From IMG/VR virus record IMGVR_UViG_3300031996_000005, positions 552 to 64,551 of that record: a stretch of DNA of 64,000 bases. The stretch is one strand, 5' to 3'. Source of the stretch: a virus. Its lineage: Duplodnaviria; Caudoviricetes. Shown here in pieces: positions 14,855 to 33,740 of the stretch. Position numbers and translations under genes: made by a program. The stretch's first letter is position 1. Each line of letters opens with the position of its first letter. Under the pieces are notes generated by a model. The model was not told the DNA's origin and searched no databases. It saw nothing but the letters and a program-made list of their open reading frames with translations.

Positions 14855-15472
14855 TCAGAGATCTTCGAGGCCAAGCTCATCGAGCTCGTCCTCCTCGACC
14901 CCGTCGGGCTCAGCCTGGGGGGTCGGCTTGGCGGCGGCCCTCCGCTTGGCGGCCGGCTTGGCCGCGGGCTCCGGCTCTGCCTCAACCTCAGGCTCAGCCT
15001 CAGGCTCGTCCTCAGGCTCGTCTTCAACCTCAGGCTCGTCCTCATCCTGGGCGGGCACGCTCTCGTCGTCCAGGTCCGACGACGGGAACACCGCGGTGAT
15101 GACGGACTTCATCTTGCCTTCGTACTCGTCGTCATCGAGGGTGACCCCGATTTCCTTGCCCACGAGACGGGTCGGATCCACGTTGAGCTTCTTCTTCGGG
15201 ACGTCGATGCCGCAGGCGATCAGCAGGTTGCGGACCTTCCACAGGCTGTCCGGGTTCAGCGTGCAGTAGTACGGGTAGGCGGCCGACAGCATGTCAGTGG
15301 GCACCAGGGTGAACACCCACTGGTTGTTGCCGGCGTTCGACTTGTTCGCGATCACCTTGGCGATCTTCACCCGATAGTCCCCGGCGGGGCGGTGCTTCGG
15401 GTTGATCCCCGAGTTTTCCTTGACGTTGGTGAAGTCAAGAACGGCCTTCAGGGGAGTGGCGGTGTCAGCCAT
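14855..15472 (-). CDS. ssDNA-binding protein-like (DUF669-like) with acidic tail
   Basis: PAGDYRVKI...LVGKEIGVTL core, very acidic C-terminus. Confidence 0.7.
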   Translation of the reverse strand: MADTATPLKAVLDFTNVKENSGINPKHRPAGDYRVKIAKVIANKSNAGNNQWVFTLVPTDMLSAAYPYYCTLNPDSLWKVRNLLIACGIDVPKKKLNVDPTRLVGKEIGVTLDDDEYEGKMKSVITAVFPSSDLDDESVPAQDEDEPEVEDEPEDEPEAEPEVEAEPEPAAKPAAKRRAAAKPTPQAEPDGVEEDELDELGLEDL

Positions 15473-16272
15473 CAGTTTGTTGCCTTTCCAGTCTTGAGCA
15501 GCGTCGTCAGCTTCTCAACGGTGGGGTTTTTCAGGTAAGGGGGGAGCGTATGAGCGGAGCGATATCCGGTGTCATACGAAACGTGCGGCTCGAGCCAGAT
15601 CCTACGTTGGATGACTTCTTTCTCATTGATCGAGCCATCGCTGGCCCGGACCTTCACGGTAGTTTTGACGGTGTAGAGCCGACCGATGACGTCCACGATC
15701 GAGTTGACCGCGGAACGCACGCCCTTCGGGAGATCCGGAACGTACATGATTGCCGCGTCCTCGGAGTCTTCATCCTCATCCCCGGACGGAATAGCATCCA
15801 TCATGCGTTCCTGCACGGTGAAGATGACGCCCAGCGGCAGATTGTGGAAGTTGTAGAGCATGGCCTTGACGGCCTCGCCCGACTTTCCGTAGTCCTGCTT
15901 GCCGACCTGACCCGGGCGTCGATCGAGGTCACGCTGCTCAGCCTGATACATGACCCATCGCAGGCTCATGTTGGCGATGCGGGTTAGACCGTCGATGCAG
16001 ACCCACTCATAGTCATGCTTGCCCTCGCGGAGGAACTTGTAGACGTCGTCCAGGTCCTCCCACGAGTTGACCGGCCACACGTCGGGGTTGAGCTTGCTCT
16101 CCTCGTTCGTACCCTCTTCAGGGTCGATGATGAGGACCTTCGGTGCGGTGGCCCCAAAGCGGGTCTTGCCCTTTTTATTGCGAGCGTAGACGAGAATGCG
16201 CGGCTTGCGTTCAGCCTTCTGGGTCGGCGTGGTGATCCGAGCCTTTGCAATCGCGTTGTAGTCCTTTGCCAT
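15472..16272 (-). CDS. AAA ATPase / RecA-like (Sak4-type) recombinase
   Basis: degenerate Walker A YARNKKGKT, CIDGLT Walker B. Confidence 0.8.
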   Translation of the reverse strand: MAKDYNAIAKARITTPTQKAERKPRILVYARNKKGKTRFGATAPKVLIIDPEEGTNEESKLNPDVWPVNSWEDLDDVYKFLREGKHDYEWVCIDGLTRIANMSLRWVMYQAEQRDLDRRPGQVGKQDYGKSGEAVKAMLYNFHNLPLGVIFTVQERMMDAIPSGDEDEDSEDAAIMYVPDLPKGVRSAVNSIVDVIGRLYTVKTTVKVRASDGSINEKEVIQRRIWLEPHVSYDTGYRSAHTLPPYLKNPTVEKLTTLLKTGKATN

Positions 16273-16304: not shown

Positions 16305-17390
16305 TTATGCACTATCGGCTCCCTTGTCGTCCTTTCCCTTGTCATCCTGGTAGTAGTCCATGGGGTCACCGATGCGGTACAGCTGACGCCGCAGGAATGG
16401 CGCATCGCCCTGGTAGAGCTCTGCCTGACACAGCTCGGTAAAGGAGCACATGAATGTGCAAGAGCGATCAGGTACACGCTCGACCCGGTCCATCTCTTCC
16501 CAGTCATACGCGGTCATACGCTCGTACGTGTGGGCCGCCTCGGCCGCCACTCGGTCAAGCATATCGTCATTTTTCTCCATCACGGATCGATGGAAAAAAT
16601 GACTGGTCTGGACCTTGTCCGGCTCCCAGCGATCCGCCTTGAGAACCTTGAGCCAGTCTCGGTATGGGGCGGGGTCCAATTCATGCCTGCGAATGGTGCG
16701 AACAAGCGTCGGATAATCCGTGTCGCACTTCGCCTTGGACAGGCGCTTCCCATCCTTGAGCAGGGCCGGCACAGAGGGGGCCTTGGTGCGCAGGTAGTTC
16801 CAGATGAACCCCTGGGCCTCGATGCCCTCCTGTCGTGCGATCCACAGGTACAGGGCTGACTGGGTGTCGAGCAACCGGAAGCTGAAGTCGGGGAACGTTT
16901 TCATGTTCTTGTGGTCGACTAGCCACAGACCAAAGCGGTCGTGTACTGCCATGTCGATCTTGCCTCGGAGAATGGCATTACCGACGAGTGGCGTCTCAAG
17001 AGTGAATTCGGTTCCTCCTACATCCCAGCCGTGGTGTGGGTCGTCCTTGTTCGCCCCGTAATGCCAGAGATAGGACAGCATCAATTGCTTACAGTCGGTG
17101 GGCAGGTCCCCGAGGGACTCTTGCTCCTCATCAAAGAGCTCGCGGAACTGCTTGGTCAGCTCTTCATGTTTTGCCTTCCAATCGCGACCCGCGTAATACT
17201 CCTCAAGCAGGTAGTGCATCCACGTTCCCATTTTTAAGGGACGAGACCTTTCCACCTTCGACTTGAGCCGCTGAACGTACTTATAGTAGAACTGCCGCGG
17301 GCATCGACGGAACGTCTTAAGCATGGAGTTAGTGACAATCTCTTGCCCCGTCTCCGGATCGATATAGGGAAAGTTCAGCTGAGAGGTCAC
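16305..17390 (-). CDS. Cas4-like PD-(D/E)XK exonuclease
   Basis: SMLKTFRRCPR, GKID...VDHK, C-terminal C..MC.F..LC (Fe-S ligands). Confidence 0.85.
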   Translation of the reverse strand: MTSQLNFPYIDPETGQEIVTNSMLKTFRRCPRQFYYKYVQRLKSKVERSRPLKMGTWMHYLLEEYYAGRDWKAKHEELTKQFRELFDEEQESLGDLPTDCKQLMLSYLWHYGANKDDPHHGWDVGGTEFTLETPLVGNAILRGKIDMAVHDRFGLWLVDHKNMKTFPDFSFRLLDTQSALYLWIARQEGIEAQGFIWNYLRTKAPSVPALLKDGKRLSKAKCDTDYPTLVRTIRRHELDPAPYRDWLKVLKADRWEPDKVQTSHFFHRSVMEKNDDMLDRVAAEAAHTYERMTAYDWEEMDRVERVPDRSCTFMCSFTELCQAELYQGDAPFLRRQLYRIGDPMDYYQDDKGKDDKGADSA

Positions 17391-19900
17391 GCGGCGAGGC
17401 CCTTCCAGTCATAAATCTGCTCGGGGGTGATCTCGGTGGCTCCCCCCCAGCGGGTACCCACCTTCAAATCAGCAATGATCGGTACGTCAAGATTCACGCC
17501 GAACATCCTTTGGAGAGGCAGGTTCTCCATGTTGTTCTTGATGATAGGGAGGGCTACTGACAATTCTTCGTCCGGAATCTCAAAGTTGATGGCGTCGTGC
17601 ACCGTGCCGATCGGATGAGCCGTCATCCCCTGGCGCTTGAACTCCTCGGTGATCCGCACCATGCTCAGCAGCGCCATGTCCGATGCGAAGGACTGAACGG
17701 GTGAGTTGATCGCCTGCCGCTCAGCCTCGGACCGTACCCCCTGATTCGGGCTGTCAACGTCAGGCAGGTGTCGCACCCGACCCAGGGGGCTCTCCACACG
17801 CTTGTACTTGCTCACCAGCTGACGCTGACGGGCGTGCCAGCGGAGCAGCATCGGGAACTGAGTGAAGAAGGCGTCCCGGAAGGCCTTGGATTCCTGCTCG
17901 GTAACCCGCACCCCGTAGTTGCTCCAGGCCGTCTCGATGAACTTGTTGACTCCCATCCCATAGAGGAAGCCGAAGTTCACTGCCTTGGCCTTTTTGCGCT
18001 CGTCCTTGGTGACCCGATCCGCCGGCTTGCCGGTCATCTTCATGGCCATGGTTGTGTGGATGTCCTGACCGGTGGCGTACAGGTGGAGCATGGTCGTCTC
18101 GCGAGCGATGAACGCGGCGACCCTCAGCTCGACTTGCGAATAGTCAGCTTCAACGAAAGAAGATCCGGGAGGCGCCCCGAAGATTCCCCGAACGAAGTCG
18201 TCGCGGGGCACCTGCTGAAGGTTAACTCCACGATTTTGCTTCCGAGAAGTAACCTTATCCGAGTCCGGCTTTCCGCTACTGAGCCGTCCGGTGACAGTGC
18301 CCGTAAGTTTGAACGTCGTATGGATCCGGTCATTTTCGTCCACCTGTTCTGCGTAGGCGCTGAAAAAGGCTGAGTCGTACTTCTGCCACTTCGTTCGCTC
18401 GATGAGTAGCTCAAGGGCTCGGTGGGGGTGCTTGTCCTGCAGGTCGAGCATGATGGCTTCCGCCATGCTCGGCTGCCCGGGTGAGCCATCGTCCGCATCC
18501 TTGCCCCGCGCGAAGACGGGCAGGCCGAGGTGCTCGAAGATGAACCAGCGCGCGAAGTTCGACGGGTTGAAGTTGACCGCCTTGTGACCCCCCTTGTCCT
18601 CGGGCACGAACGTCAGGAGCTCGGCATCGATCGCCTCCAGCTCACGCTTGGCGATGGACCAGTGGGTCATCATCTTTTCGGTGTCGGTCCACACACCCTC
18701 GCGCTCGACCTCGGTGAAGATCTCCGAGCAGGGCATCATGATCCGGGTGAAGATGCGCAGCTTGCGCTTGTTCGCCGGCAGACCGAACTGGCCCTTGAAG
18801 ATCCGGTACAGGCCGAGGGTGTAGAACGTGTCCTTGGCGTTGTATTCCAGGACCTCGCCGAGGGGTGTGTCCACCAGGTCCTTGGTCGAGATGGCCCATG
18901 GCTTCACCCCGAGCAGCTGCTGCGCGAGCGGCTTGAGGCCCTTGGGCCGGTTCTCATCGAGTGTGTGGGCGGCCAGCATCGTGTCGAATGTCAGCGTCCG
19001 CATAACCCCGAACTGGCGCAGCCATCGGCAGTCGAACTTGCCGTTGTGCGCGATCGCCTTGGGCACCGCGTTGAAGTACGGTTGGATCTTGCTGAGCACC
19101 TGTCGCCACTGCCGACGCCATGGTGACCCGGGATGCATCAACGGGACGGCCCAGACGCTCGGGGGCGCGCCCGGATCGTTGGGGGCCAGGGTGACTGCCA
19201 ACGACACGATCGCCGCATCTGGGGCGAACTCGTCGTATCCGTTCGTCTCGATATCGAACGCCATCACCTCAGCCTGCTTGAGTGCCGCGATGAACAGACG
19301 CACGTCCCCCAGGGTGGAGACCGAGTGGTAGGCGAATTCCTCTTCACCATCGACCCCGCGGATCATGCGGTCGAAATACTTGAGGTCGGCTTCGAACCCG
19401 CCCTTCAGCCCCGGATTCCGATAGATCATCGAGGGACTGATGGTGGGCAGCACCCGAGCGTTGCCGCGCTCATACACCACACCGCGGTGCTTCATGATGC
19501 CGGACTTGCCAACGAGGGAGAACATTGCCTCATTGCCGAGAGCAAGGATGAACTTCGGGCCGATGGCCTCGACCTCCCGGTCGAGGTAGGGCCGGCAGGC
19601 CTTCAGGTCGGTCTTGCCTGGGTCGAGATCCCAGGCCCGGCATTTGATGGCCGCGGTAAAGGCGACGTCGGTGGGGTCGACCCCTGCTCGCTCCAGATAC
19701 GTCAGCATCTCCTTCCGGCCCTTGGCTGATAGCGGAGACTTGGTCACCACCATGACGTCAGCTCGGGCGGGCCCCGATGCGGTCACGCAGACGTCCTTGC
19801 CCTGAGCCTGCGTGTGCATCTTGCAGAGCTCGCACTGCGGGTCACGGACGAGCAGCTGGACCTCTGCGTTCATGCGGTCGAGTGGGGTCGCCTCGGTCAT
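17387..19900 (-). CDS. family A DNA polymerase with N-terminal UDG family-4-like domain
   Basis: DIETNG/HNGKFD/YNAKD exonuclease motifs; DYSQVELR, KAVNFGFLYG, VHD polymerase motifs; N-terminal CELC...KC...C. Confidence 0.93.
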   Translation of the reverse strand: MTEATPLDRMNAEVQLLVRDPQCELCKMHTQAQGKDVCVTASGPARADVMVVTKSPLSAKGRKEMLTYLERAGVDPTDVAFTAAIKCRAWDLDPGKTDLKACRPYLDREVEAIGPKFILALGNEAMFSLVGKSGIMKHRGVVYERGNARVLPTISPSMIYRNPGLKGGFEADLKYFDRMIRGVDGEEEFAYHSVSTLGDVRLFIAALKQAEVMAFDIETNGYDEFAPDAAIVSLAVTLAPNDPGAPPSVWAVPLMHPGSPWRRQWRQVLSKIQPYFNAVPKAIAHNGKFDCRWLRQFGVMRTLTFDTMLAAHTLDENRPKGLKPLAQQLLGVKPWAISTKDLVDTPLGEVLEYNAKDTFYTLGLYRIFKGQFGLPANKRKLRIFTRIMMPCSEIFTEVEREGVWTDTEKMMTHWSIAKRELEAIDAELLTFVPEDKGGHKAVNFNPSNFARWFIFEHLGLPVFARGKDADDGSPGQPSMAEAIMLDLQDKHPHRALELLIERTKWQKYDSAFFSAYAEQVDENDRIHTTFKLTGTVTGRLSSGKPDSDKVTSRKQNRGVNLQQVPRDDFVRGIFGAPPGSSFVEADYSQVELRVAAFIARETTMLHLYATGQDIHTTMAMKMTGKPADRVTKDERKKAKAVNFGFLYGMGVNKFIETAWSNYGVRVTEQESKAFRDAFFTQFPMLLRWHARQRQLVSKYKRVESPLGRVRHLPDVDSPNQGVRSEAERQAINSPVQSFASDMALLSMVRITEEFKRQGMTAHPIGTVHDAINFEIPDEELSVALPIIKNNMENLPLQRMFGVNLDVPIIADLKVGTRWGGATEITPEQIYDWKGLAA

Positions 19901-20334
19901 CGCAGATTCACCACCCGAACCCGGGCACGGGTCAGCAGCTGGATACCTTCCACCTTCCGATAGGGCTGCTGGTAGGTGACCGACACCAGGCCGGCGTTAA
20001 TGATCAGCTTGGCGCAGTCGACGCAGGGCATGTGCGTAACGGTCATGTCCGCACCTTCGACCGAGAGACCATGCCGTGCTGCGAAGGCGATGGTGTTGGC
20101 CTCGGCGTGCACCGCGATCTGACAACCCCGTTCCTCGCCTGTGCTGGGGACGTCCCGGGAGTGCTCGCAGTGGGGAAGACCCGCGGGAACCCCGTTGTAG
20201 CCAGAGATGATCACTCGTCCCTGCCGGTGAATCACCGCCCCGACCTGGAGACGGTCACACGTGCCCAGCTTCGCGAACTCGTGGGCCACCGCCATGGCAG
20301 TTTCCTCACGGGTTGGTCGCATCAGCTCGCTCAT
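19897..20334 (-). CDS. dCMP deaminase
   Basis: GYNG, HAEAN, PCVDC zinc-deaminase motifs. Confidence 0.9.
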   Translation of the reverse strand: MSELMRPTREETAMAVAHEFAKLGTCDRLQVGAVIHRQGRVIISGYNGVPAGLPHCEHSRDVPSTGEERGCQIAVHAEANTIAFAARHGLSVEGADMTVTHMPCVDCAKLIINAGLVSVTYQQPYRKVEGIQLLTRARVRVVNLR

Positions 20335-21161
20335 CGCTTGTTCCTTTTGCCCTGACGAACCTGGTTAAGCGCATGGTCATCAGCCTCGAAGGTGTGGAGC
20401 GAGGAGATGATCATGTTCAGTCGGCCGGGTTGCAGGTCGTGTCCCAGCTGGCCGCAGATCCACTGGTTCAGTCGGCCAGCCATGTAGACATCATCTTGGA
20501 AGTGGCGCATGAGATCGCAGGACCGCATGTAGTACCACATGTGGAGACGTCCCCCGCGGATCAGGAAGTGGTATCCAAGGGTGCAAGGCACGCGCTGGCC
20601 GTGCACCGTTCCGGTATCTTCGGGAAACCACACGGGCAGGAACGCTTGTCGAGTCCCGGGTGCTCGGCGAAGCAAGTCAACAACGTCCCCGAGGTCACCG
20701 AGTGCGAAGCGGACTCCCCAGTTGTGCCGGTCTCCGTTGATGCGATGGTGGTTCGGGTCGCTGGGGAAGCCGGCACGCTTCGGCCAGAATCGTTCGGGGT
20801 AGGTGTGGCTGAACTGGACAGCTTGACCATCCTTCTGGAATTTGTGGTCCCGGTTCCCATTCTGGTTGAACGGCCACCAGGCCTCGGAGGGCGGGGGGTT
20901 GAGCGGCACACCGAAGACGCGCTCCTGAAAGTGGTCCTCGGCCCATGGCAGATGAGCGCCCGTCCACTCCGCCAGCGTCTCGGGTGAGGGGGGCAGGCGC
21001 AGCTCGAACGTCACACCCATGAGCTCGCGGGTCTTGACGTCGGTGTCCTGGGACTGCCACTGCCCAACACTCTCAAGAGGCTGGTTGAGGATGTCGACCT
21101 GCATGTCCTCGAACGAGTTTTGGAAGGTGACCATCTCACCATCCGAGCGATACCGCCTCAT
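20331..21161 (-). CDS. thymidylate-synthase-fold enzyme 1 (dCMP hydroxymethylase-like)
   Basis: PCTLGYHFLIR...MRSCDLMRHFQDD, SLHTF; Asp at the E. coli N177-equivalent position. Confidence 0.85.
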   Translation of the reverse strand: MRRYRSDGEMVTFQNSFEDMQVDILNQPLESVGQWQSQDTDVKTRELMGVTFELRLPPSPETLAEWTGAHLPWAEDHFQERVFGVPLNPPPSEAWWPFNQNGNRDHKFQKDGQAVQFSHTYPERFWPKRAGFPSDPNHHRINGDRHNWGVRFALGDLGDVVDLLRRAPGTRQAFLPVWFPEDTGTVHGQRVPCTLGYHFLIRGGRLHMWYYMRSCDLMRHFQDDVYMAGRLNQWICGQLGHDLQPGRLNMIISSLHTFEADDHALNQVRQGKRNKR

Positions 21162-21250
21162 GAAAGAACCTCAAAAAGGATGCTGAACAGCATTGTCAGA
21201 GTGAAGGCGATGCAGATCCAAAAGATCTGAGCGCGCAGTTCTCTACTCAT
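21158..21250 (-). CDS. 30-aa hydrophobic micro-ORF
   Basis: MSRELRAQIFWICIAFTLTMLFSILFEVLS bridges the two TS-like genes with overlaps at both ends. Confidence 0.35.
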   Translation of the reverse strand: MSRELRAQIFWICIAFTLTMLFSILFEVLS

Positions 21251-22250
21251 CGTCGGGTCCGAGCATGTCGTCATCCATGCCGGCCTCATCGGAGAAGGTG
21301 GACATGTCCACGTCCTCGGGGGCTCCCGAGCGACAGTTGCGGAAGATCGGCGAGAAGTCGAGATTCTTAGTCGAAACCGACGCCAGGGGCTTGAACCGCT
21401 TGTTCTGTGAGGCCGCCCCCTTGGACCCCTCACCCCCACCTTCGAAGGGTGCGCCGTATTCGTAACCGAAGACCTCGGTGTGCCAGCGCTTACGGATGCG
21501 TCGGGTCTGGCTGAACTTCATGTCCCCATAGAGGACCCCGTCGTCATCCATCTTCTTAAAGGCATCGAGCCACTTCTGCGAGTAGAACAACCCCGGGGCT
21601 GACGTCTTGGTGTGGGGCTCCGCGGGGTTCTGGAACTGCTCCCGCATCTCGTCGTCGCCGAAGAGATAGGCCATGGACTTGTAGACGTGAAACTGCGGGT
21701 TCTCGTTGTGCCAGACGAACGCCATCTCTTCGGGAGTGACTCCTACACGCTCGCCTACCAGCCGGGCACAGACGTGCGCCACGTTCAGGTCGAGGCCGGC
21801 GATGTAGCCGAGATAGGACGTGCGTGAGTGCAGGGTGATCTGCGGCCGGGGCACGGCCCGATAGCCGATGGCAAGGATGCAGGAGCCCCAGCGTCGCCAG
21901 ACGCGGTCGTTGGACTTCGTGCTCTGCTGGGCGACCAGGTTGGTGCGCATGATGGAGACGCCGCGCTTGCCCTTGGTGAGCTTGGCTTCGCAGCTGGCCA
22001 GCCACTCCTCCAGCGCCACGGGGTTGACGTACTGGCGGACCAGGCTCGACCACCGCAGCTTGTTGACCCAGAGTCGCTGAATGTCGAGGTCATAATCGAA
22101 CGACTCAGCTCGGGCGATGACGTTGTGGAGATGAACGTCCGAGGAGGTCACCAGGTCGAGCTGGTCCGCCGACGAGAAGGAGAGCTTGCGGATGAGGCCT
22201 TCGTGCAGCGCCGTTCCCGTGGGGAAGTTGTAGGCGTGGATCGGAGGCAT
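21243..22250 (-). CDS. divergent thymidylate-synthase-fold enzyme 2
   Basis: SCILAIGYR...HSRTSYLGYIAGLD...QFHVY aligns with TS C..RSxD.....N/D..HxY; start by TGATG overlap at 22250. Confidence 0.6.
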   Translation of the reverse strand: MPPIHAYNFPTGTALHEGLIRKLSFSSADQLDLVTSSDVHLHNVIARAESFDYDLDIQRLWVNKLRWSSLVRQYVNPVALEEWLASCEAKLTKGKRGVSIMRTNLVAQQSTKSNDRVWRRWGSCILAIGYRAVPRPQITLHSRTSYLGYIAGLDLNVAHVCARLVGERVGVTPEEMAFVWHNENPQFHVYKSMAYLFGDDEMREQFQNPAEPHTKTSAPGLFYSQKWLDAFKKMDDDGVLYGDMKFSQTRRIRKRWHTEVFGYEYGAPFEGGGEGSKGAASQNKRFKPLASVSTKNLDFSPIFRNCRSGAPEDVDMSTFSDEAGMDDDMLGPDDE

Positions 22251-22738
22251 CAGTAGCCGCTCGCATTCCGGTCGAAGTTGGTCAGGGACTTGGAGAAGTA
22301 CTCGTGGAACAGGGTCTCCGCATCGAGTCCGGAAAGGATGCAGAACTCGATGAAGAAGTGGAACGCGTCGGCGATCTCCTCGTAAAAAGTAGAGATGCTG
22401 ACGGGTCGCGGCTTGTCCTTCCAACTTTTGCTGCCATCGAGGTGGGCCATCGCCTCGGACAGCTCGCGCACGAGGTGGCCGAACGTCTCGTGGATGCGGG
22501 CCTGTACCTCGCGGACGTGAACGTCTCCCCAGCTCGCCACCTGCGTTGGTACGGACAAACCGGAATCGATCTCCTTATCCCACACCGCACGCATGAAGGC
22601 GCGCTGCTGGGCGAAGATCGTGGCGAGCGTGTCCGGGACCTTGTCCGTCGCGGGGTCAAGGCCGCTGTCGGTGTCGCCAGCCCACCACTCGTCGAAATCA
22701 GGGGTGGTCGCGGTCCAGGGGATCGGGCTGTCGCTCAT
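22250..22738 (-). CDS. all-alpha dNTP pyrophosphohydrolase (dUTPase/dCTPase, MazG-like)
   Basis: ELSEAM...KSWK...EEIADAFHFF motif; start ATG 22738. Confidence 0.8.
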   Translation of the reverse strand: MSDSPIPWTATTPDFDEWWAGDTDSGLDPATDKVPDTLATIFAQQRAFMRAVWDKEIDSGLSVPTQVASWGDVHVREVQARIHETFGHLVRELSEAMAHLDGSKSWKDKPRPVSISTFYEEIADAFHFFIEFCILSGLDAETLFHEYFSKSLTNFDRNASGY

Positions 22739-23265
22739 CGGGTAACGCTCCAGTGGGTGCGGTGAGAGTTGATGTGTGGATGGATGTGGTCGGCAGCGTT
22801 GTGCCTGGTCCAGTCGTAAACCACGATGCCGGCCGAGCTGGCCCAGGACGCCGGCAGAGACGCATAGAGATGCCAGATCGTGTCGATATGCGTCGTCACC
22901 CCGGCCATGTCCCGCTCGTCGCTGACGGCGAGCTTGACGATGTCCAGCGGGGGCAGGCACACGATGGTCAGCGCGCGACGGGCGACATAGCGCCGTAGAT
23001 GTGTCGTGTGGAACTGGGGGTCCATGGTGCCCCGGACGACTGGCCCGTAAATGTACTCGGAGATGAACGGATGCCGGTCGTAGAAATGCACTGGCTCCTC
23101 TGTCCAGTTGCCCACGTCCCGCTCGGCCCAGCGGTAGAGATTCTTGACCGGACCGTTGACCCCATCACTCGCCCGCTCGTGCACGGGAATGCTGGTGTAG
23201 TGCGCGGCGAGCTCGTTGAGCAGGGTGGTCTTCCCCGCCCCGTCTGGCCCTTCGATGATGATCAT
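22735..23265 (-). CDS. dNMP (thymidylate-like) kinase
   Basis: IIEGPDGAGKTT P-loop; YDR..SEYIYG. Confidence 0.85.
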   Translation of the reverse strand: MIIIEGPDGAGKTTLLNELAAHYTSIPVHERASDGVNGPVKNLYRWAERDVGNWTEEPVHFYDRHPFISEYIYGPVVRGTMDPQFHTTHLRRYVARRALTIVCLPPLDIVKLAVSDERDMAGVTTHIDTIWHLYASLPASWASSAGIVVYDWTRHNAADHIHPHINSHRTHWSVTR

Positions 23266-23279
23266 TACTACCCTTCGGT

Positions 23280-24821
23280 TCAGGCTGCGGCTTGCTTGCG
23301 GAGTGCTTCGCGCACTTCGGGAATGCTGGGTGTGGAGCGGAGCAGGGCCTTTGGCGTTTTCAAGATGGCCTTGCCGACGTCGCCGTCCTCTTGCAAGGTC
23401 TGAAACAGGACCTCGTCCACCGTGCCGCGGGCAATCAGGTACGTGAACGTGGTGCTCGAGCGGGACAGGGCGATGCGGTCACACGCCTGGGTGTAGTCGA
23501 CCCAGGAGTTGGTGAGCGAGTACCACACCATGCGGGATGCGGTGCTCAGGTCGATGCCGAGAGATCCGGCCGCCGGCTGCAGAATGAACACTGCGGCCTC
23601 GTCGATCTTGCGGAACTCCCGGATCGCTCGATCGGTGTCTAGCCGCTTCATGCCGCCGCGGAGCTCGAACACCGGCAGGCCCAGCTCTTTGGCGAGTTCC
23701 TTGATCGCATCCATGTCCGCCTTGAACCGGGCAGCAACCACGATCTTCTCGTCGTGATCGCGGGCATCTTCGAGCAGGGGCTCTAGGGCACGAAGCTTTT
23801 CGGTGCCGATGCGGACCGTCTCACCTCCGGTCTCGACACCGTCTTCATCAAAGGTGCTGGCCGTGCCAACCATGCCGGACGTGATCTGGGCCAGCCGCAG
23901 AGCTTGCACGAGCGGAATGGAAGCCTCAGCGATTGCCCCTGTTTCGAGCTTGGCCACCATCTCCTGTGCCATGTCGTCGTACGCCTTAGCCGAAGCATCG
24001 AGCTCGACCGGAACGATCTGTATGTCGCGCGGGGGCAGATCGAAGCACTCGGCCCGGGTTACCGCGAAGGCGTCCAGGTGAATGCGCTCCTGCAGCTCTT
24101 CGAGGTTGCGACCGCCGAGCCACTTCGGATAGCCCCCGACGTTGGTCCACCGACCGAAGTGGTCCTTGAAGTCGGCGAGCGTGGACAGGTCACCGAACCG
24201 GTCGGGGTTGAGGAACTTCCACTGCATGTAGATGTCGTGGGCGCGCTTGGCCTTCGTGATCGGCGTTCCGGTCAGCAGCACCCGGTACTGAAACAGCGGG
24301 GCCATCGACACGATCATGTTCGCGGCCTTACCGGACGCTGACTTGATCTTGTGTGACTCGTCGAGCACGCCGGCACAGGGCTTGCGGTCGACCCAAGTTA
24401 CCAGCTGTTTTCTGGTCTTAAATCGTCCCGAGGCCTTCGAGCGCTGACCGCTGGGCGTGCGAGCTCCGGGCGTACCGAACGCCTCGTAGTTGACCAGGAC
24501 CACCGACAGGTCATAGCCCGGTGTGGGCGGCCTCGGAGGACCGGCCTTGCGCGCCCTTGCGTCCCAGACCTGCAGCTCTACCCGGGCGGGGGAGTGCACG
24601 AAGAACTCGTCGAGCCACACGCCGAGGACCCGGTTCGGTACGATGATGATGGCGCGGTCGATCTTGCCGGTGAGCGCGAGGATCGACAGATAATCGATCG
24701 TCGTCTTCGTCTTGCCGGTCCGCGGCTCCATGAGAAGAGCTCCGCCGTAGCCGGACTTCAGGAGCTTTTTAACCGCCTTGACCTGGTGAACGTACGGTCG
24801 GGTCTTCCATCGGTAACCCAT
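23280..24821 (-). CDS. SNF2-like DNA helicase
   Basis: MEPRTGKT, LDESH, LTGTP, GIDL, QACDRI; GAGGAGG RBS. Confidence 0.9.
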   Translation of the reverse strand: MGYRWKTRPYVHQVKAVKKLLKSGYGGALLMEPRTGKTKTTIDYLSILALTGKIDRAIIIVPNRVLGVWLDEFFVHSPARVELQVWDARARKAGPPRPPTPGYDLSVVLVNYEAFGTPGARTPSGQRSKASGRFKTRKQLVTWVDRKPCAGVLDESHKIKSASGKAANMIVSMAPLFQYRVLLTGTPITKAKRAHDIYMQWKFLNPDRFGDLSTLADFKDHFGRWTNVGGYPKWLGGRNLEELQERIHLDAFAVTRAECFDLPPRDIQIVPVELDASAKAYDDMAQEMVAKLETGAIAEASIPLVQALRLAQITSGMVGTASTFDEDGVETGGETVRIGTEKLRALEPLLEDARDHDEKIVVAARFKADMDAIKELAKELGLPVFELRGGMKRLDTDRAIREFRKIDEAAVFILQPAAGSLGIDLSTASRMVWYSLTNSWVDYTQACDRIALSRSSTTFTYLIARGTVDEVLFQTLQEDGDVGKAILKTPKALLRSTPSIPEVREALRKQAAA

Positions 24822-25111: not shown

Positions 25112-25200
25112 GGCCCCAACTCTAGCCGATCCGTGTGTCCCTTATTTTCTGCTCGGGGAGAAATGATCATGGTCGGGGTGCCGCTAGGCTAGGCGTCGTG
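25109..25200. promoter_or_regulatory. divergent leaderless promoters
   Basis: TAGAGT (25124-25119, minus) 7 nt before ATG; TAGGCT (25185-25190) 7 nt before GTG 25198. Confidence 0.55.
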
Positions 25201-27324
25201 GCCCGACTCGAAAACAGGGCATTGACCCCTGATGAACAGCTCAAGGTACTGTCCCGGATCTGGGGTAATGACCGGAGCGGATACTGCTTCCTGCCCTGGA
25301 TCGACGGTTCTGCGCGTGATTCTTCCGCGCGCCGTAAAAACTATCACGAGGGGCGCGCTTACAAATGGCCCCGAGAGAAGGAAGCCATTCTTGACCATCT
25401 CCGCAGCCATGAGAGTGACGACCTGTACTTTGCGCCTTCACTGTTCAACGGAAAGCGGCGCATCGCAGAACAAGCGGCCCCTGAGCGTGCACTATGGGCT
25501 GACCTCGATCCTGTCAACCCACGGGGTCTCGGTGCTCGTCGTCCGACAATCGCTTGGGAAAGCTCACCCGGACGTTATCAAGGCATTTGGCTACTCCCGA
25601 CCGAACGTCCGGGGGCTAGTGGGCCAGGTAAAGAGAACCATCGGCTTACCGTTGAGGTCGGTGCGGACCCTTCGGGATGGGATACGACCCAGCTTTTACG
25701 CGTCCCGGGTCGACTGAATCACAAGCCCTCCTATCGCGATGAGAATGGCGGAGATCCCACACCGGGAAAGCTGCTGTGGATGGATGGTCCCCGCTATACC
25801 TGGGGCGATTTCGACGATCTTCCCGATATTGGCCAGGCCGCTGTAGAGGACATAGATTTCCTTGATGAGGGGCTCCTTTCGCGGGTCGATCGCCACGCGG
25901 TGTGGGGTCGTGTTCGTTTACGTGTCTCTCGGCCAGTTCGTGAATACATGGGCGCTCGGTCTGCTGACGGCGCTGATCGTTCTGATGTGCTATGGCAAAT
26001 TGAGCGTGACCTAGCCGATGCCGGCTGCTCCATTGTGGAAATCGTCGCCATTGTTCGGCCGACGGTCTGGAACAAGTTTGCCGGGCGCAATGATGAGCTC
26101 AAGCGGCTGAAGTCTGAGGCCGCCAAGGCGGTCGCCCAGGTCGTGGCCAACGGCGGCGACGCCGAGGGTGTGCTCGAAGGCGTCGAGGAGGCCCAGAAGC
26201 CCAACATCCAGTGGCTGTCGGACGTCATCGCCCAGGGCATCCCGCGGCCGAAGTGGCTCGTGCGGGGCATCTGGGCCAAGGGCACGTGTGGCTTCATCTC
26301 TGGCGCGCCGAAGAGCTACAAGTCATGGTTCGGTCTGGACCTCGCCCTCACTATCGCTACCGGAAAGAGCTTCCTCGATGACCCTCAGCACTCCATGGTC
26401 GGCGGACCGAAACCGGTTCTCATGTTGCTTGAGGAGGATGACAAGAGGCTGGTACTTGCGCGTCTGGCGCAGATCCTCGAAGCCAAGGACCCCGACAACT
26501 TCTGGCATGGACAGCTATCGGTCGGTGCCGATGGACAGGTCACGTGGCATGGACCCACCAAGTCTCTCCCCCTCGCCCTGCACGTCGGACACGGCTTCAT
26601 TGCCTCTGACGAGGGGTGGCAGGCCTGGCTCGATGAGGCAATGGCCGAAGGGAACTTCGCCGCCGTTGTGATTGACACGCTGGGCACCACCGCCGGTGAC
26701 ATCGACACCGACCGAGCCGGGGAGGTCATGGGCAAGATGCTGCGCCCGCTGAAGATCCTGTCCCAGAAGCACGACTGCGCGATCATGATCGTGCACCACA
26801 ACAAGAAGGGCGATGGGACGAAGCGGGGGGGCCAGGACATGCTGGGCTCTGTCGCGCTGCACGCGTGGGTCGAGAATGCGATCTACGTGCGGGAAAAGCA
26901 GGTGGACCGCCAGGGAACCACGACCACGTTCGTCGAGCGGGAGTCCAAGCAGGCCCCGGAGTATCAGTTCCGCGTCAAGGTGCCGCGCATGGTGGAGCAC
27001 CCCGATGGCTCCCGAACGCTGTGGGCGCCTGAGGTGCTCTCTGGCTGGGGCCACACCGATGAGGACACCCCGTCACCCCGACCGGAGGCTGCCAAGGGCT
27101 CCACGGAGCGCTCAGCGGCTCCTAGCGGCCGTGTGGCCGGTTCCCAGATCGCCTTTGAACTCAAGCAGATGGGCGGGGACCGGAGATTCCTGCCGGTGGA
27201 CCGGATTGCCACCACCCGGGGCCAGTCGGTCTCTGCCACCCGTCGTCAGCTGGATATCGCCGTGGACAACGAGCTGCTGGAGCGGGACGGGGATAGTTAC
27301 CGGATTTCCCAGGGAGACTCTTGA
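25198..27324 (+). CDS. primase/polymerase (RepB/AEP-like) fused to AAA_25-like helicase
   Basis: LYFAP, WADLD, ESSPGRYQGIW; GAPKSYKS Walker A, IDTL Walker B. Confidence 0.88.
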   Translation: MARLENRALTPDEQLKVLSRIWGNDRSGYCFLPWIDGSARDSSARRKNYHEGRAYKWPREKEAILDHLRSHESDDLYFAPSLFNGKRRIAEQAAPERALWADLDPVNPRGLGARRPTIAWESSPGRYQGIWLLPTERPGASGPGKENHRLTVEVGADPSGWDTTQLLRVPGRLNHKPSYRDENGGDPTPGKLLWMDGPRYTWGDFDDLPDIGQAAVEDIDFLDEGLLSRVDRHAVWGRVRLRVSRPVREYMGARSADGADRSDVLWQIERDLADAGCSIVEIVAIVRPTVWNKFAGRNDELKRLKSEAAKAVAQVVANGGDAEGVLEGVEEAQKPNIQWLSDVIAQGIPRPKWLVRGIWAKGTCGFISGAPKSYKSWFGLDLALTIATGKSFLDDPQHSMVGGPKPVLMLLEEDDKRLVLARLAQILEAKDPDNFWHGQLSVGADGQVTWHGPTKSLPLALHVGHGFIASDEGWQAWLDEAMAEGNFAAVVIDTLGTTAGDIDTDRAGEVMGKMLRPLKILSQKHDCAIMIVHHNKKGDGTKRGGQDMLGSVALHAWVENAIYVREKQVDRQGTTTTFVERESKQAPEYQFRVKVPRMVEHPDGSRTLWAPEVLSGWGHTDEDTPSPRPEAAKGSTERSAAPSGRVAGSQIAFELKQMGGDRRFLPVDRIATTRGQSVSATRRQLDIAVDNELLERDGDSYRISQGDS

Positions 27325-29348: not shown

Positions 29349-29566
29349 TGACTGTTAACAGTGTTGAGCCGTTGCTGCTGACCTGGAATCAGCTCGCTGT
29401 ACTGCGGTTTTTGCGGTTGGTGGGGGAGGCCAGGACGGTGGAGGAGATCGCCTTCGACGCGATGGTCTCGCTGCTGGCTCCGGCCGTGCGTCAGGCGTTG
29501 GTCGTGCTCGCCGGCTACGGCCTGGTGGAAAAGAAGGGTGAGACGACGTGGGGAATCAAGGCTTGA
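29348..29566 (+). CDS. small HTH-like hypothetical protein
   Basis: TGATG overlap; LTWNQLAVL...L..YGLVEK. Confidence 0.5.
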   Translation: MTVNSVEPLLLTWNQLAVLRFLRLVGEARTVEEIAFDAMVSLLAPAVRQALVVLAGYGLVEKKGETTWGIKA

Positions 29567-30762
29567 TTGCAGGGAATGCGATCGTGGGTGTTGTGGCCTA
29601 CGAAGACGATCAGGCCACCGTGTGGCACGGTGATTGCCTGGACAATCTTCGCGAGATGCCCGACAGCTCCGTCGACGCCATCGTCACCGATCCGCCCTAC
29701 GGTCTCGGCTTCATGGGCAAGGCGTGGGACGACCTTCCGCCCGGCCTCCCGTGGGCGCAGGAGTGCCTCCGCGTCCTCAAGCCCGGCGGGCACCTCCTCG
29801 CTTTCGGCGGAACGCGCACCTGGCACCGCCTCGCCGTGGCCGTTGAGGATGCGGGGTTTGAGGTCCGGGACTCCATCGCCTGGCTGTACGGGTCGGGATT
29901 CCCTAAGTCGATGGACGTGTCGAAGGCCATTGACAAGGCCGGGCACCTCTCGGCCCAGTGGGCCGGCTGGGGCACCGCCCTCAAGCCAGCCTTCGAGCCC
30001 ATCGTCGTCGCCCGCAAGCCGCTCGTCGGCACCGTTGCCGCGAACGTCCTGGCGCACGGCACGGGGGCGCTGAACATCGACGGGACGCGGGTGCCTCACG
30101 GCGAGGATGTGGACCTTGAAGCGCGACAGCGTCAGCAGGTCGGTGAGGACAACGGCTGGCGGCTGGCGAAGACGATGACCGGCACCGACATTCCTACCTA
30201 CAAGCCGGGAGGCCGCTGGCCCGCCAACGTCCTCCTCGACGGCGACGCGGCGGCCGAGCTGGACGCGCAGAGCGGGGACCGCCCCGGGATGCGTTCGCAG
30301 AACCTCCACACGACCAAGCCCAAGTTCGAGGGTGGCGTCAACCTGTCGGGGTCCATGACGCAACAGACCGGCCGCGTGGAGGGTTACAACGACCAGGGCG
30401 GCGCCTCCCGCTTCTTCCCCACCTTCCGCTACCAGGCGAAGGCCCCCACGAGGGAGCGGCCGTCCTACATCACCGACGACGGCTCCAAGGTGGCTCACCC
30501 CACCGTGAAGCCCCTCGCCCTCATGCGTTGGTTGGTCCGCCTGGTCACCCCGCCGGGTGGTCTCGTCCTGGACCCGTTCGCGGGCAGCGGGACGACGGTT
30601 GAGGCGGCGATCCTCGAAGGCTTCCGGGTCATCGGCATCGAGCGAGAGGCGGACTATTTGCCGTTGATCGAGGCCCGCATCGCGCGGAACCGGATCACGG
30701 CCGAGGGGCTACCCGCAGTGGCCGACGCGCTAGCTCTGTTCGACTTTGAGGAGCCGGCGTGA
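29563..30762 (+). CDS. DNA methyltransferase (N6-A/N4-C, beta class)
   Basis: GDCL, DPPY, HPTVKP, DPFAGSGTT in beta order; start uncertain (TTG 29563). Confidence 0.9.
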   Translation: MIAGNAIVGVVAYEDDQATVWHGDCLDNLREMPDSSVDAIVTDPPYGLGFMGKAWDDLPPGLPWAQECLRVLKPGGHLLAFGGTRTWHRLAVAVEDAGFEVRDSIAWLYGSGFPKSMDVSKAIDKAGHLSAQWAGWGTALKPAFEPIVVARKPLVGTVAANVLAHGTGALNIDGTRVPHGEDVDLEARQRQQVGEDNGWRLAKTMTGTDIPTYKPGGRWPANVLLDGDAAAELDAQSGDRPGMRSQNLHTTKPKFEGGVNLSGSMTQQTGRVEGYNDQGGASRFFPTFRYQAKAPTRERPSYITDDGSKVAHPTVKPLALMRWLVRLVTPPGGLVLDPFAGSGTTVEAAILEGFRVIGIEREADYLPLIEARIARNRITAEGLPAVADALALFDFEEPA

Positions 30763-32195: not shown

Positions 32196-32232
32196 TTGAC
32201 GCCGTGTCTTGACACCGGTTAGGTTCCCTCGC
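32196..32232 (+). promoter_or_regulatory. leaderless promoter with palindromic operator GTGTCTTGACAC
   Basis: TTGACG-N18-TAGGTT-N7-ATG(32233); palindrome 32204-32215. Confidence 0.7.
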
Positions 32233-32583
32233 ATGACGACGACAGGGGACACCATGGACGAGCTGATCCAGTTCCTGCTTGCGCGGATCGCTGACGAGGA
32301 GGAGCTGGCGGCGCTCATTACAGCAGACACGGAGACCTTCAACAGCGAGCCGCGATGCCTCTACGAGATCCGCCGTAAAGACGGCAACATCACGACCATA
32401 ACGCGCTACACCGTCTACGACGCACAGAAGCAGCTGCGCGAGTGTGACGCCAAGCTGCAGATGATCAACGCCATCCTGGACCAGCCCATGAGCCGGGTGC
32501 GGCCTGAAGATCTCTATTTCCTCCGGCTGCTGGCCTTCCCGTACACCGACCACCCGGACTACCACGAGGAGTGGAAGCCATGA
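32233..32583 (+). CDS. DUF6221-like protein, copy 1
   Basis: FLLARIA...LRLLA.PY.DHPDY.EEW.P. Confidence 0.7.
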   Translation: MTTTGDTMDELIQFLLARIADEEELAALITADTETFNSEPRCLYEIRRKDGNITTITRYTVYDAQKQLRECDAKLQMINAILDQPMSRVRPEDLYFLRLLAFPYTDHPDYHEEWKP

Positions 32584-32882
32584 CCGCCATCAACCAGCCC
32601 GTAACCAGTCCCTACCGCAAGGCGCTGGACCGCTGGGCCGCCAAGTACGTCCCCGCCGGCGCCCAGGTGGTCAGCGTGGCGACCGCCTACGATGACGGCT
32701 GGGAGAAGGTCAACAGCCTCGTGTCCGTGTTCGCGGGCCGGCCAGAGAGCATTGACATCATCATCTCGTACCGCCACCCCATCTACCCAGCTGAACTGCT
32801 CTACTCCGAGCTCTCGATGGAGAAGCTGGTAGGCGTCGGCGAGCTGCTGACCGAACTGTTCGCAATCGAGGAGACCTCATGA
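32571..32882 (+). CDS. hypothetical protein
   Basis: coupled ORF, likely start ATG 32580. Confidence 0.55.
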   Translation: MEAMTAINQPVTSPYRKALDRWAAKYVPAGAQVVSVATAYDDGWEKVNSLVSVFAGRPESIDIIISYRHPIYPAELLYSELSMEKLVGVGELLTELFAIEETS

Positions 32883-33085
32883 TGATGAAGGCGTACCTGT
32901 ACGACTCCAACGGTCGCAAGGTGGGAACAGCAACGGTCGGGGAGACGATCCTCGATACCCCCCCGGACCTCACATACGTTGAGTACGTCAGCGAGGACGG
33001 GCAGCGGTATCGCGCTCCCGTCGCCGGGGATGTGGTCCTACTCGATGAGTCGGAGCTGCTCGCAATCGACGAGACCTCATGATGA
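32860..33085 (+). repeat. 26-bp direct repeat (1 mismatch) flanking one small gene
   Basis: TCGCAATCGA(G/C)GAGACCTCATGATGA at 32860 and 33060. Confidence 0.85.
32879..33082 (+). CDS. hypothetical protein
   Basis: lies between the two direct repeats. Confidence 0.6.
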   Translation: MMMKAYLYDSNGRKVGTATVGETILDTPPDLTYVEYVSEDGQRYRAPVAGDVVLLDESELLAIDETS

Positions 33086-33417
33086 CAAAGACGCTGGCCG
33101 ACTTCCTGCTAGCTCGTATCGCAGAGGACAAGGCGGATGCCATCGAGCTGCTGCGACAGCATGAACGCTGGGAGCGCGAGCAGGATCAGAACGGCGCCGA
33201 CGGGAGTCAGGGAAGCATCGTTGTATCCCTCCTTGCCGGCGGACCCTCCGACCCCGCCCGCATCCTCGCCGAGGTCGAGAGCAAGCGGAAGGTGCTGCAC
33301 CTCGTGTGGGCCCTCTTGCAAATGCGCGTGGAAACCGCTGTAGCGGACCAACTCCTACGCCTGCTTGCCCTGCCTTACGTCGAGCATCCTGACTACCGCG
33401 AGGAGTGGAGACCGTGA
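33079..33417 (+). CDS. DUF6221-like protein, copy 2
   Basis: FLLARIAED...LRLLALPYVEHPDYREEWRP. Confidence 0.7.
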   Translation: MMTKTLADFLLARIAEDKADAIELLRQHERWEREQDQNGADGSQGSIVVSLLAGGPSDPARILAEVESKRKVLHLVWALLQMRVETAVADQLLRLLALPYVEHPDYREEWRP

Positions 33418-33740
33418 AGGACCTGGCTGACTTCCTGTTAGCGCGGATCGCGGAAAAAGAGGAGGTGGCGCGCCGAGCCCAGGAGCAATCGGACGGTGAC
33501 CTATGGGTCGTCACCGGTTCCGACAACGCTGTGGGCGTCGATTACCACCCCGACCTCATCCTCGCCGAGTGCAAGGCCGAACGAGAGATCATCCGCGCAG
33601 CACTGCACGGGTTCCTGGTTGAGCAGATTGCGCCCGGGTCGGGGATCGAGGGATACACCGTGGCCCTGCGCGAGGTGCTGGAGATCTTCGCTGCTGTTCA
33701 CCGGAATCACCCCGATTACCCCGAGGAGCTACAACCATGA
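33405..33740 (+). CDS. DUF6221-like protein, copy 3
   Basis: FLLARIAEKE...ILAECKA...HPDYPEELQP; likely start GTG 33414. Confidence 0.65.
   Translation: METVKDLADFLLARIAEKEEVARRAQEQSDGDLWVVTGSDNAVGVDYHPDLILAECKAEREIIRAALHGFLVEQIAPGSGIEGYTVALREVLEIFAAVHRNHPDYPEELQP

Follow-up and report, generated by a model that had tools for sequence, protein, structure and literature searches.

Organization of the cassette

We analyzed a 64,000-nucleotide stretch (hereafter, the window) of IMG/VR virus record IMGVR_UViG_3300031996_000005, a 64.6-kb soil-metagenome phage with a guanine-plus-cytosine (G+C) content of ~62%, and the window comprises nearly all of that contig. The minus strand of the window carries a run of genes that suggests a pathway for modifying cytosine at the nucleotide level. 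These genes encode a kinase, a nucleoside triphosphate (NTP) pyrophosphohydrolase, a protein predicted to have a thymidylate synthase (TS) fold (TS2), a divergent member of the TS family (TS1), a deaminase of the deoxycytidine monophosphate (dCMP) deaminase family, and a family A DNA polymerase (PolA). An earlier annotation made from the sequence alone (hereafter, the original prediction) had proposed such a pathway, and open reading frame (ORF) calls together with profile matches place the genes where it had put them, all on the minus strand, as follows (window positions):

22735..23265, minus strand: P-loop deoxynucleoside monophosphate kinase, thymidylate-kinase-like (phrog_761, E = 6e-15)
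22250..22738, minus strand: all-alpha NTP pyrophosphohydrolase, T4 gp56-like (PF08761, phrog_12184, BLASTP to gp56)
21243..22250, minus strand: TS2, predicted TS-fold protein of 335 amino acids (predicted structure; phrog_13667)
21162..21242, minus strand: TS2-TS1 spacer of 81 nucleotides (read from the sequence)
20331..21161, minus strand: TS1, divergent TS-family enzyme of the cytosine type (PF00303, phrog_160, structural model)
20490..20525, minus strand: TS1 motif RSCDLMRHFQDD, the last residue of which, Asp224, is the equivalent of Asn177 in Escherichia coli ThyA (alignments)
19897..20334, minus strand: dCMP-deaminase-family zinc deaminase (PF00383, E = 2.2e-20; phrog_174, E = 7e-49)
17387..19900, minus strand: PolA with an N-terminal uracil-DNA glycosylase (UDG)-like domain and a 3'-5' exonuclease (Pfam)

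The cassette had been described as five translationally coupled genes. This description holds for four of the five junctions from the kinase to PolA, where reading frames overlap as ATGA (kinase/pyrophosphatase, TS1/deaminase, and deaminase/PolA) or as TGATG (pyrophosphatase/TS2), but not for TS2 and TS1, which lie 81 nucleotides apart. Their spacer (21162-21242) contains two short hairpins (CAGATC..GATCTG and TGCTG..CAGCA), a T-run after the second of these, and a GAGG ribosome-binding site for TS1. The inverted repeats could act as an attenuator inside the operon or as a site for processing; a consensus terminator scan lists nothing in the spacer. Among relatives, the TS2/TS1 junction varies from an overlap to a spacer to as much as ~1 kb with small ORFs. 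A megablast search of the cassette region against phage genomes returned no match.

TS1 is a cytosine-type homolog of thymidylate synthase

TS1 exceeds the curated threshold of the Pfam TS family (PF00303; E = 5.7e-7; 29.4 bits relative to a cut-off of 24.3) and matches phrog_160 (E = 2e-32). Its AlphaFold2 (AF2) model, with a predicted local distance difference test (pLDDT) score of 79, aligns with many TS structures at a VIA-align Z score of ~17. All TS subfamilies fell between Z 16.4 and 17.6, with the HY126 enzyme AfhB tying for best (Z 17.4), so this ranking cannot separate TS subfamilies and gives no clue to the product of TS1.

TS1 was aligned with E. coli ThyA (~18% identity), T4 gp42, and the TS homolog of phage PaMx74, and residues are given here in ThyA numbering. 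TS1 retains Cys146, Arg166, Ser167, Asp169, Arg126, and His207, along with the VPC and RSCD motifs. It differs from ThyA in that N177 is replaced by Asp, H147 by Thr, L143 by Arg, and R127 by Gln; in the numbering of TS1 itself, the catalytic Cys is Cys193, the neighboring Thr is Thr194, and the Asp is Asp224. The C-terminal tail of ThyA is also missing, as TS1 stops ~50 residues short of the ThyA C-terminus. TS1 therefore has none of the ThyA hallmarks, namely Asn177, His147, the C-terminal tail, and a bulky hydrophobic residue at position 143.

The original prediction rested its choice of substrate on the motif RSCDLMRHFQDD (20525-20490), in which the twelfth residue is Asp. Our alignments agree, in that Asp224 aligns with E. 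coli N177, T4 D179, and the corresponding Asp of the PaMx74 enzyme. The best match to TS1 among PDB sequences was the Lactobacillus casei N229D mutant, and the mutant Asp aligned to the twelfth residue of the motif; MilA was also aligned. Asp177 has been published as the switch of TS from deoxyuridine monophosphate (dUMP) to dCMP. In metaviromes, residues 177 and 147 discriminate best between TS homologs encoded on contigs with modified cytosine and those encoded on unmodified ones (Yang et al., 2021; PMC8670742). With a cytosine-type Asp177 and Thr147 both present, TS1 is predicted to use dCMP, as had been proposed; Asp177 predicts the substrate and not the product.

These features are shared across the TS1 clade. 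Cys146, Arg143, Asp177, Arg166, Gln127, and His207 are invariant across 182 complete TS1 relatives, position 147 is Thr or Ser in all 182, and at position 169 there is Asp in 178 of them and Glu in the remainder. The clade also carries an insert at residues ~72-150 (window 20710-20950; PWAEDHF..NPxPSE.WWPF..FSHTYPER.WPK) with many invariant residues. Despite this high sequence conservation, AlphaFold modeled the insert poorly (pLDDT 46-60); a cofactor or partner may be needed for it to adopt an ordered structure.

The genome of Microbacterium phage Huwbert bears on what TS1 does. Gene 68 of Huwbert encodes a canonical ThyA (65% identical to the E. coli enzyme, with Asn177, Leu143, and a full C-terminal tail) and directly follows gene 67, which is TS1-like. 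The annotation of each of these two genes is 'thymidylate synthase'. The presence of a canonical ThyA beside a TS1-like gene suggests that TS1 is not a substitute for ThyA.

TS2 is a conserved protein with a predicted TS fold

Searches of Pfam, NCBIfam, and PDB with TS2 (sequence and profile) returned nothing, and hhalign comparison of two TS2 profiles (one of them broad, with 62 sequences) to the TS1 profile found no link (probability 0.2%). TS2 does match phrog_13667 (E = 3e-85), a family with no function assigned there. The AF2 model of TS2 is confident (pLDDT 88.4; predicted template modeling score 0.86), and every Foldseek match at E <= 1e-3 belonged to the TS family (top E = 9e-6). By VIA-align, the model was closest to the dCMP hydroxylase of HY126 (9iqu; Z 14.6; 187 residues aligned with a root-mean-square deviation of 3.9 Å), followed by MilA (Z 13.4) and ThyA (Z ~10). 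A TS fold is therefore predicted for TS2 from its modeled structure. One further lead came from a protein atlas, in which a cluster neighboring TS2 (score 0.90) has PF00303 in 37% of its members.

Across 185 relatives of TS2, Cys124, Arg143, and Asp154 (own numbering) never vary, and all but one of these relatives (184) have Tyr146. The Cys-Arg-Asp spacings are 19 and 11 residues, as compared to 20 and 11 in ThyA. In the model, Cys124 precedes a strand by two residues, Arg143 sits within the strand after that, and the long helix that follows carries Asp154 in its first turn. By spacing and the order of secondary structure, and not by residue-level superposition, these three residues correspond to the nucleophilic Cys, Arg166, and residue 177 of ThyA, and Tyr146 occupies the place of the folate-binding Asp169. 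The C-terminal helix is conserved and rich in Arg.

The original prediction had noticed that another gene has a TS fold and shares the Asp of TS1, and the confident TS-fold model, with an invariant Asp154 located 11 residues past an invariant Arg143, supports it. What had not been recognized is that TS2 represents a conserved and widespread family; within a set of 1.84 billion proteins it accounts for 259 clusters (50% identity), all of which lack annotation. Since TS2 retains the nucleophilic Cys, the phosphate-binding Arg, and the Asp that reads cytosine, whereas Tyr replaces the folate-binding Asp169, it probably acts on the same nucleotide as TS1, or on the product of TS1, without a normal folate site. 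Alternatively, TS2 may pair with TS1. Structure prediction of a TS1:TS2 complex gave a score of 0.00, which is below the mark and speaks neither for nor against binding.

Kinase, pyrophosphatase, deaminase, and polymerase

The kinase, deaminase, and polymerase named in the original prediction were each recovered by profile matches. The kinase matches phrog_761 ('thymidylate kinase') over residues 1-156, which is most of its length, and contains GPDGAGKTT and DRH motifs; searches of Pfam, NCBIfam, and PDB sequences matched only its P-loop. The pyrophosphatase matches PF08761 (dUTPase_2) above cut-off (E = 6.5e-7) and phrog_12184 (E = 2.8e-32). It also resembles T4 gp56 directly, with 28% identity over 116 amino acids by BLASTP (E = 3e-10) and the same C-terminal ending, NF(D/E)R..GY, and gp56 itself matches PF08761 (E = 2e-5). 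Judged from these similarities, the pyrophosphatase is a member of the dimeric dUTPase/dCTPase family and a relative of gp56, which lends weight to the T4-like logic that had been proposed for the cassette.

The deaminase contains HAE and PCxxC motifs and is 35% identical to cd of PaMx74 and 41% identical to gp45 of phage Muddy (E = 6e-31). Deaminases of this family are frequent neighbors of TS homologs on cytosine-modified metavirome contigs, in that 70% of the dCMP-deaminase genes on modified contigs were found within 3 kb of a TS, as compared to 6% of those on unmodified contigs (Yang et al., 2024; bioRxiv 10.1101/2024.12.05.627091). The other commonest neighbors of these deaminases are PRA-PH, DNA_pol_A, and the exonuclease of the latter (bioRxiv 10.1101/2024.12.05.627091). 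The PolA gene of the cassette encodes DNA_pol_A (E = 1.9e-78), DNA_pol_A_exo1 (E = 4e-14), and, in its N-terminal ~190 amino acids, a UDG-like domain (PF03167; E = 5.5e-13).

A deaminase, a kinase, and a UDG-like domain together raise the question of whether the cassette might serve to replace thymine with 5-hydroxymethyluracil (hmU) by way of cytosine. Here, TS1 would make 5-hydroxymethyl-dCMP, the deaminase would convert it to 5-hydroxymethyl-dUMP, and the thymidylate-kinase-like enzyme, which suits such a substrate, would phosphorylate the latter for incorporation. Seven deaminases from contigs with an Asp177 TS gave 5-hydroxymethyldeoxyuridine in DNA when given 5-hydroxymethyldeoxycytidine nucleotides (bioRxiv 10.1101/2024.12.05.627091), TS1 lacks the tail that ThyA uses in its reductive step, and the UDG-like domain of PolA had been likened in the original prediction to the polymerase of SPO1. 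However, no dTMPase or dTTPase was recognized, the canonical ThyA in the cassette of Huwbert would counter replacement of thymine, and the association observed in metaviromes concerns cytosine modification (PMC8670742; bioRxiv 10.1101/2024.12.05.627091). We therefore regard the hmU route as quite improbable.

Distribution and synteny

Homologs of TS2 were identified in 85 GenBank phage records, with actinobacterial hosts throughout, and homologs of TS1 in 114 records. The order kinase, pyrophosphatase, TS2, TS1, deaminase, and PolA is found in phages Zuko, Huwbert, GTE2, and Muddy, where TS2 is annotated 'hypothetical'. The cassette of Muddy, a Mycobacterium phage, is complete and comprises gp49 (kinase), gp48 (dUTPase-like), gp47 (TS2), gp46 (TS1), gp45 (deaminase), and gp44 (PolA), although gp45 is annotated 'hypothetical protein' despite being a deaminase homolog. 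The same gene order was also observed in Pseudomonas phage PMBT14, Yersinia phage P744, Serratia phages (Serbin), and Clostridium perfringens phages (CP3). The protein ahead of TS1 is shorter in the Pseudomonas, Yersinia, Serratia, and Clostridium phages, and the TS2-like Cys, Arg, and Asp are retained in the homologs from the Pseudomonas, Yersinia, and Clostridium phages. The cassette is therefore present in cultured phages from hosts of three phyla.

Sixty-four loci were recovered from IMG/VR with TS2 as the query, and the cassette recurred in all 64. TS1 was present in 63 of the 64, as were the kinase and, upstream of the cassette, an SNF2 helicase; 60 loci had PolA and 59 had the deaminase. 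Genes missing from these loci reflect contig ends, with the exception of one locus without a deaminase; this viral locus and Clostridium phage CP3 both lack the deaminase and keep TS1 and TS2. Cas4-like and then Sak4-like genes lie downstream, in the same order, in PMBT14, P744, and the IMG/VR loci. The ORFs inserted in the cassettes of relatives were small ORFs without assigned function and one endonuclease VII (homing-type), with no recognizable modification enzyme among them. Neither the window nor the flanking regions of the 64 relatives contained a canonical ThyA or a ThyX. A search of the MetaGPA supplements for motifs of the TS1 clade found none.

The GenBank annotations of all cultured relatives describe an ordinary supply of thymidylate, and the announcement of phage Azira also takes this view (PMC10353413). 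The genes would then encode a dCMP deaminase, a TS that methylates dUMP, a dUTPase, and a thymidylate kinase, and TS2 would be an unrelated accessory protein. The score of TS1 above the Pfam TS threshold is consistent with such a role. However, position 177 is Asp and not Asn, and position 147 is Thr or Ser and not His, in 182 of 182 relatives; TS1 has Arg at position 143 and no C-terminal tail; and Huwbert encodes a real ThyA in addition. Moreover, TS2 has, in its model, a TS fold with a Cys, Arg, and Asp of its own and is always adjacent to TS1. Considering these observations, an ordinary role in thymidylate supply appears very improbable.

Flanking genes and other features of the window

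The cassette is part of a co-directional block on the minus strand (15.4-24.8 kb) that is longer than the coupled block of the original prediction, beginning with an SNF2 helicase and extending through Cas4-like and Sak4-like genes. The spacer between the helicase and the ATG of the kinase is 14 nucleotides long and contains GAAGGG, while the polymerase and the Cas4-like nuclease overlap as GTGA. The features of this block outside of the cassette, along with the one other DNA-modifying enzyme found, are as follows:

23280..24821, minus strand: SNF2-family helicase, first gene of the operon (PF00176, E = 1.6e-15; Helicase_C, E = 2e-11)
16305..17390, minus strand: Cas4-like PD-(D/E)XK nuclease at the downstream end of the module (PF12705, E = 1.8e-23)
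15472..16272, minus strand: Sak4-like AAA_24 ATPase at the downstream end of the module (PF13479, E = 3e-22)
29548..30762, plus strand: N6/N4 DNA methyltransferase (PF01555 N6_N4_Mtase, E = 6e-33; DPPY motif)

The methyltransferase is encoded on the strand opposite the cassette, and the phage may also methylate adenine or N4 of cytosine. Pfam scans of 39 window proteins detected no glycosyltransferase, TET, aGPT-Pplase, radical-SAM, or sugar-nucleotide enzyme, with small ORFs and most structural ORFs lying outside of the scan. Within that scope, the original prediction's observation that the window has no glycosyltransferase, TET, aGPT, or sugar-nucleotide gene stands.

Two further observations concern the plus strand. 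A fusion of a RepB-type primase with an AAA_25 (RecA/DnaB-like) ATPase is encoded at 25135-27324, divergent from the operon that runs from SNF2 to Sak4. Three DUF6221 paralogs (E = 3e-18, 3e-22, and 6e-14) are encoded within 1.5 kb at 32209-33740, with small genes between them.

Proposed pathway and identity of the product

From the observed gene set, active-site residues, folds, and strict co-occurrence, we infer the activities, product, and modification of virion DNA that are outlined here. We lean toward a pathway in which the cassette substitutes a C5-modified cytosine for cytosine ahead of replication, with TS2 serving as a second catalytic step or as a partner subunit. The gp56-like pyrophosphatase would convert deoxycytidine triphosphate (dCTP), and deoxyuridine triphosphate, to monophosphates, emptying the dCTP pool and supplying dCMP. 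Cys193 of TS1 would then attack C6 of dCMP while Asp224 and Thr194 read the cytosine face, and TS1 would move a one-carbon unit from methylene-tetrahydrofolate to C5. The thymidylate-kinase-like enzyme would phosphorylate the resulting 5-substituted dCMP, and the phage PolA would incorporate the modified nucleotide. The deaminase would divert part of the dCMP pool, modified or otherwise, into the thymidylate branch.

The product would be 5-methylcytosine (5mC), 5-hydroxymethylcytosine, or another 5-substituted cytosine, and the sequence features bearing on this choice conflict. In characterized enzymes, Asp or Glu at position 143 goes with a hydroxymethyl product and a bulky hydrophobic residue with a methyl product, while Asn169 marks the flavin-dependent 5-hydroxy-dCMP synthases (Lee et al.; PMC13326640). 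TS1 keeps Asp169, which argues against the hydroxylase type. In our alignment, position 143 is Asp in T4 gp42 and Asn in the PaMx74 enzyme. Given that the Arg143 of TS1 falls in neither class and that PaMx74 has Asn143, the rule for this position is not decisive here. Features that point to a non-reductive, hydroxymethyl-type product are the lack of a tail (as in gp42), a polar residue at 143, no detected dihydrofolate reductase (DHFR), and the added ThyA of Huwbert. Features that point to a methyl product are the greater resemblance of TS1 in sequence to the PaMx74 enzyme than to gp42, the thymidylate-kinase-like enzyme, and the near-constant deaminase, which would lead to deoxythymidine monophosphate (dTMP).

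The last of these features also suit a bypass to thymidylate that leaves the DNA canonical. TS1 would methylate dCMP, the deaminase would convert 5-methyl-dCMP to dTMP, and the kinase, which is thymidylate-kinase-like, would phosphorylate dTMP; the outcome would be a boost of thymidine triphosphate in a GC-rich host, with 5-methyl-dCMP as a transient. In published work, most TS homologs found with such deaminases have Asp177, and five of seven tested made 5-methyl-dCMP. Many of the deaminases prefer 5mC, and 5mC-selective deaminases beside an Asp177 TS were proposed to turn 5-methyl-dCMP into dTMP, on the pattern of Xp12 and PaMx74 (bioRxiv 10.1101/2024.12.05.627091). The deaminase in 59 of 64 loci, the lack of a canonical ThyA or ThyX in the window and in the flanks of the 64 relatives, and the reading of these genes by annotators as thymine synthesis (PMC10353413) are also consistent with a bypass. 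However, in Xp12 and PaMx74 the same enzymes accompany complete replacement of cytosine by 5mC, and a gp56-like dCTPase/dUTPase together with a dedicated kinase suits replacement of a nucleotide pool. A bypass would furthermore leave TS2 without a role, would make the canonical ThyA of Huwbert redundant, and does not fit CP3 and the viral locus that encode TS1 and TS2 but no deaminase. Collectively, these observations suggest that a bypass with canonical DNA is unlikely.

Several observations weigh against replacement of cytosine by a C5-modified cytosine. The rules for predicting the product conflict; TS1 resembles gp42 in having no tail, yet in phmmer comparisons with reference TS enzymes its best match was the PaMx74 TS (E = 7.5e-11) and none was obtained to gp42. 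TS2 is tied to the TS family by predicted structure only, and its profiles matched neither that of TS1 nor any PDB sequence. Neither the window nor the flanks of relatives gave any sign of DHFR. The site CTCGAG (XhoI/PaeR7I) occurs 9 times in the window relative to 34.5 expected (z = -4.3) and is the only strongly depleted 6-bp palindrome, suggesting that at least one site containing cytosine is still under selection. Among 4-bp palindromes in the window, GGCC, CCGG, GCGC, CGCG, and GATC occur near the expected rate and CTAG is depleted; without matched control genomes, such palindrome counts cannot show modification. The only sequencing runs containing the phage DNA are soil metagenomes stored as contigs, which are of no use for base-modification signal. 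Lastly, the literature searched (which did not extend to the paper on GTE2 itself) contains no report of modified DNA in Muddy, GTE2, PMBT14, Serbin, Tlacuache, or P744, and the Azira announcement reads these genes as thymine synthesis (PMC10353413).

TS2 may be the reason that the product rules fail. As a more speculative and less likely possibility, TS1 and TS2, acting in succession or as a heterodimer, might produce a cytosine derivative that is new to DNA, doing so wholly at the nucleotide level and with no group-transfer enzyme. The Cys of TS2 would then act on the 5-substituted dCMP made by TS1, within a non-folate site involving the Tyr and the Arg-rich helix.

Implications for phage biology

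The presence of a modified cytosine decides which restriction, CRISPR (clustered regularly interspaced short palindromic repeats), and glycosylase defenses a phage escapes, as well as which modification-dependent nucleases are able to kill it. It also affects the sequencing, cloning, and engineering of phages. Many cultured actinophages that encode the cassette are annotated only for thymine-synthesis genes. Muddy, which encodes a complete cassette, is a therapeutic phage that has been used in patients. TS2 is itself of interest as an unannotated family of a very well-studied fold that has a catalytic-looking Cys, Arg, and Asp without the folate-binding Asp. If TS1 and TS2 do build a new base, then this would constitute a new type of reaction in the TS superfamily, present in phages of at least three bacterial phyla and including Muddy.

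Comparison with known systems

The pathway had been put forward as a candidate new one. As a kind it is not new, since the combination of an Asp177 TS, an adjacent deaminase, an all-alpha NTP pyrophosphatase, and PolA has already been published as a marker of phage DNA with modified cytosine (PMC8670742; bioRxiv 10.1101/2024.12.05.627091). The original prediction also did not consider the role of the deaminase in those systems, where it yields dTMP from 5-methyl-dCMP. Thymidine hypermodification or hmU synthesis of the SPO1 type (dUMP hydroxymethylase, 5-HMUDK, and aGPT-Pplase) is disfavored, given that TS1 has Asp and not Asn at position 177, which had been raised against it in the original prediction, and that no aGPT-Pplase or other group-transfer enzyme was detected among the 39 scanned proteins.

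Flavin-dependent 5-hydroxy-dCMP synthases (RB69 gp48, DLP3 gp80, and HY126 AfhB; PMC13326640; PDB 9iqu/9iqc) have a compact TS fold that acts on dCMP, and AfhB is the best structural match to TS2. Nevertheless, the D169N substitution that is diagnostic of these enzymes is not present here, where the residue is Asp (178 of 182) or Glu in TS1 and Tyr in TS2. Unlike the systems that encode these synthases, no glycosyltransferase or sugar-nucleotide genes were found here.

The T4 pathway to 5-hydroxymethylcytosine (gp56 dCTPase/dUTPase, gp42 dCMP hydroxymethylase, gp1 deoxynucleoside monophosphate kinase, and cd dCMP deaminase) involves the same four activities that are predicted for the cassette. 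TS1 resembles gp42 in the Asp (D179 in T4), in the Thr that directly follows the catalytic Cys, and in lacking the ThyA tail, whereas it differs in having Arg143 in place of Asp or Glu and in showing no detectable pairwise similarity. In further contrast to T4, no glucosyltransferase was found here, and the kinase is thymidylate-kinase-like and not gp1-like. Nor does T4 have a counterpart of TS2, as the TS-family enzyme that it encodes besides gp42 is a genuine thymidylate synthase.

The module of Xp12 and PaMx74, phages in which 5mC replaces cytosine (bioRxiv 10.1101/2024.12.05.627091), shares with the cassette an Asp177 TS, a deaminase just downstream, an all-alpha NTP pyrophosphatase upstream, and a dedicated PolA with exonuclease. 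PaMx74 encodes PRA-PH and DHFR, whereas the pyrophosphatase of the cassette is of the dUTPase_2 type. The PaMx74 TS is ThyA-like (33% identity to the E. coli enzyme) and keeps the C-terminal tail, while TS1 has no tail, an invariant Arg143, and a long conserved insert. PaMx74 gp55 was examined as a counterpart of TS2 and rejected, being of similar length but unrelated; PaMx74 has no TS2. A claim to newness is therefore fair for the TS1 clade, with its invariant Arg143 and lack of a ThyA tail, together with its constant partner, TS2.

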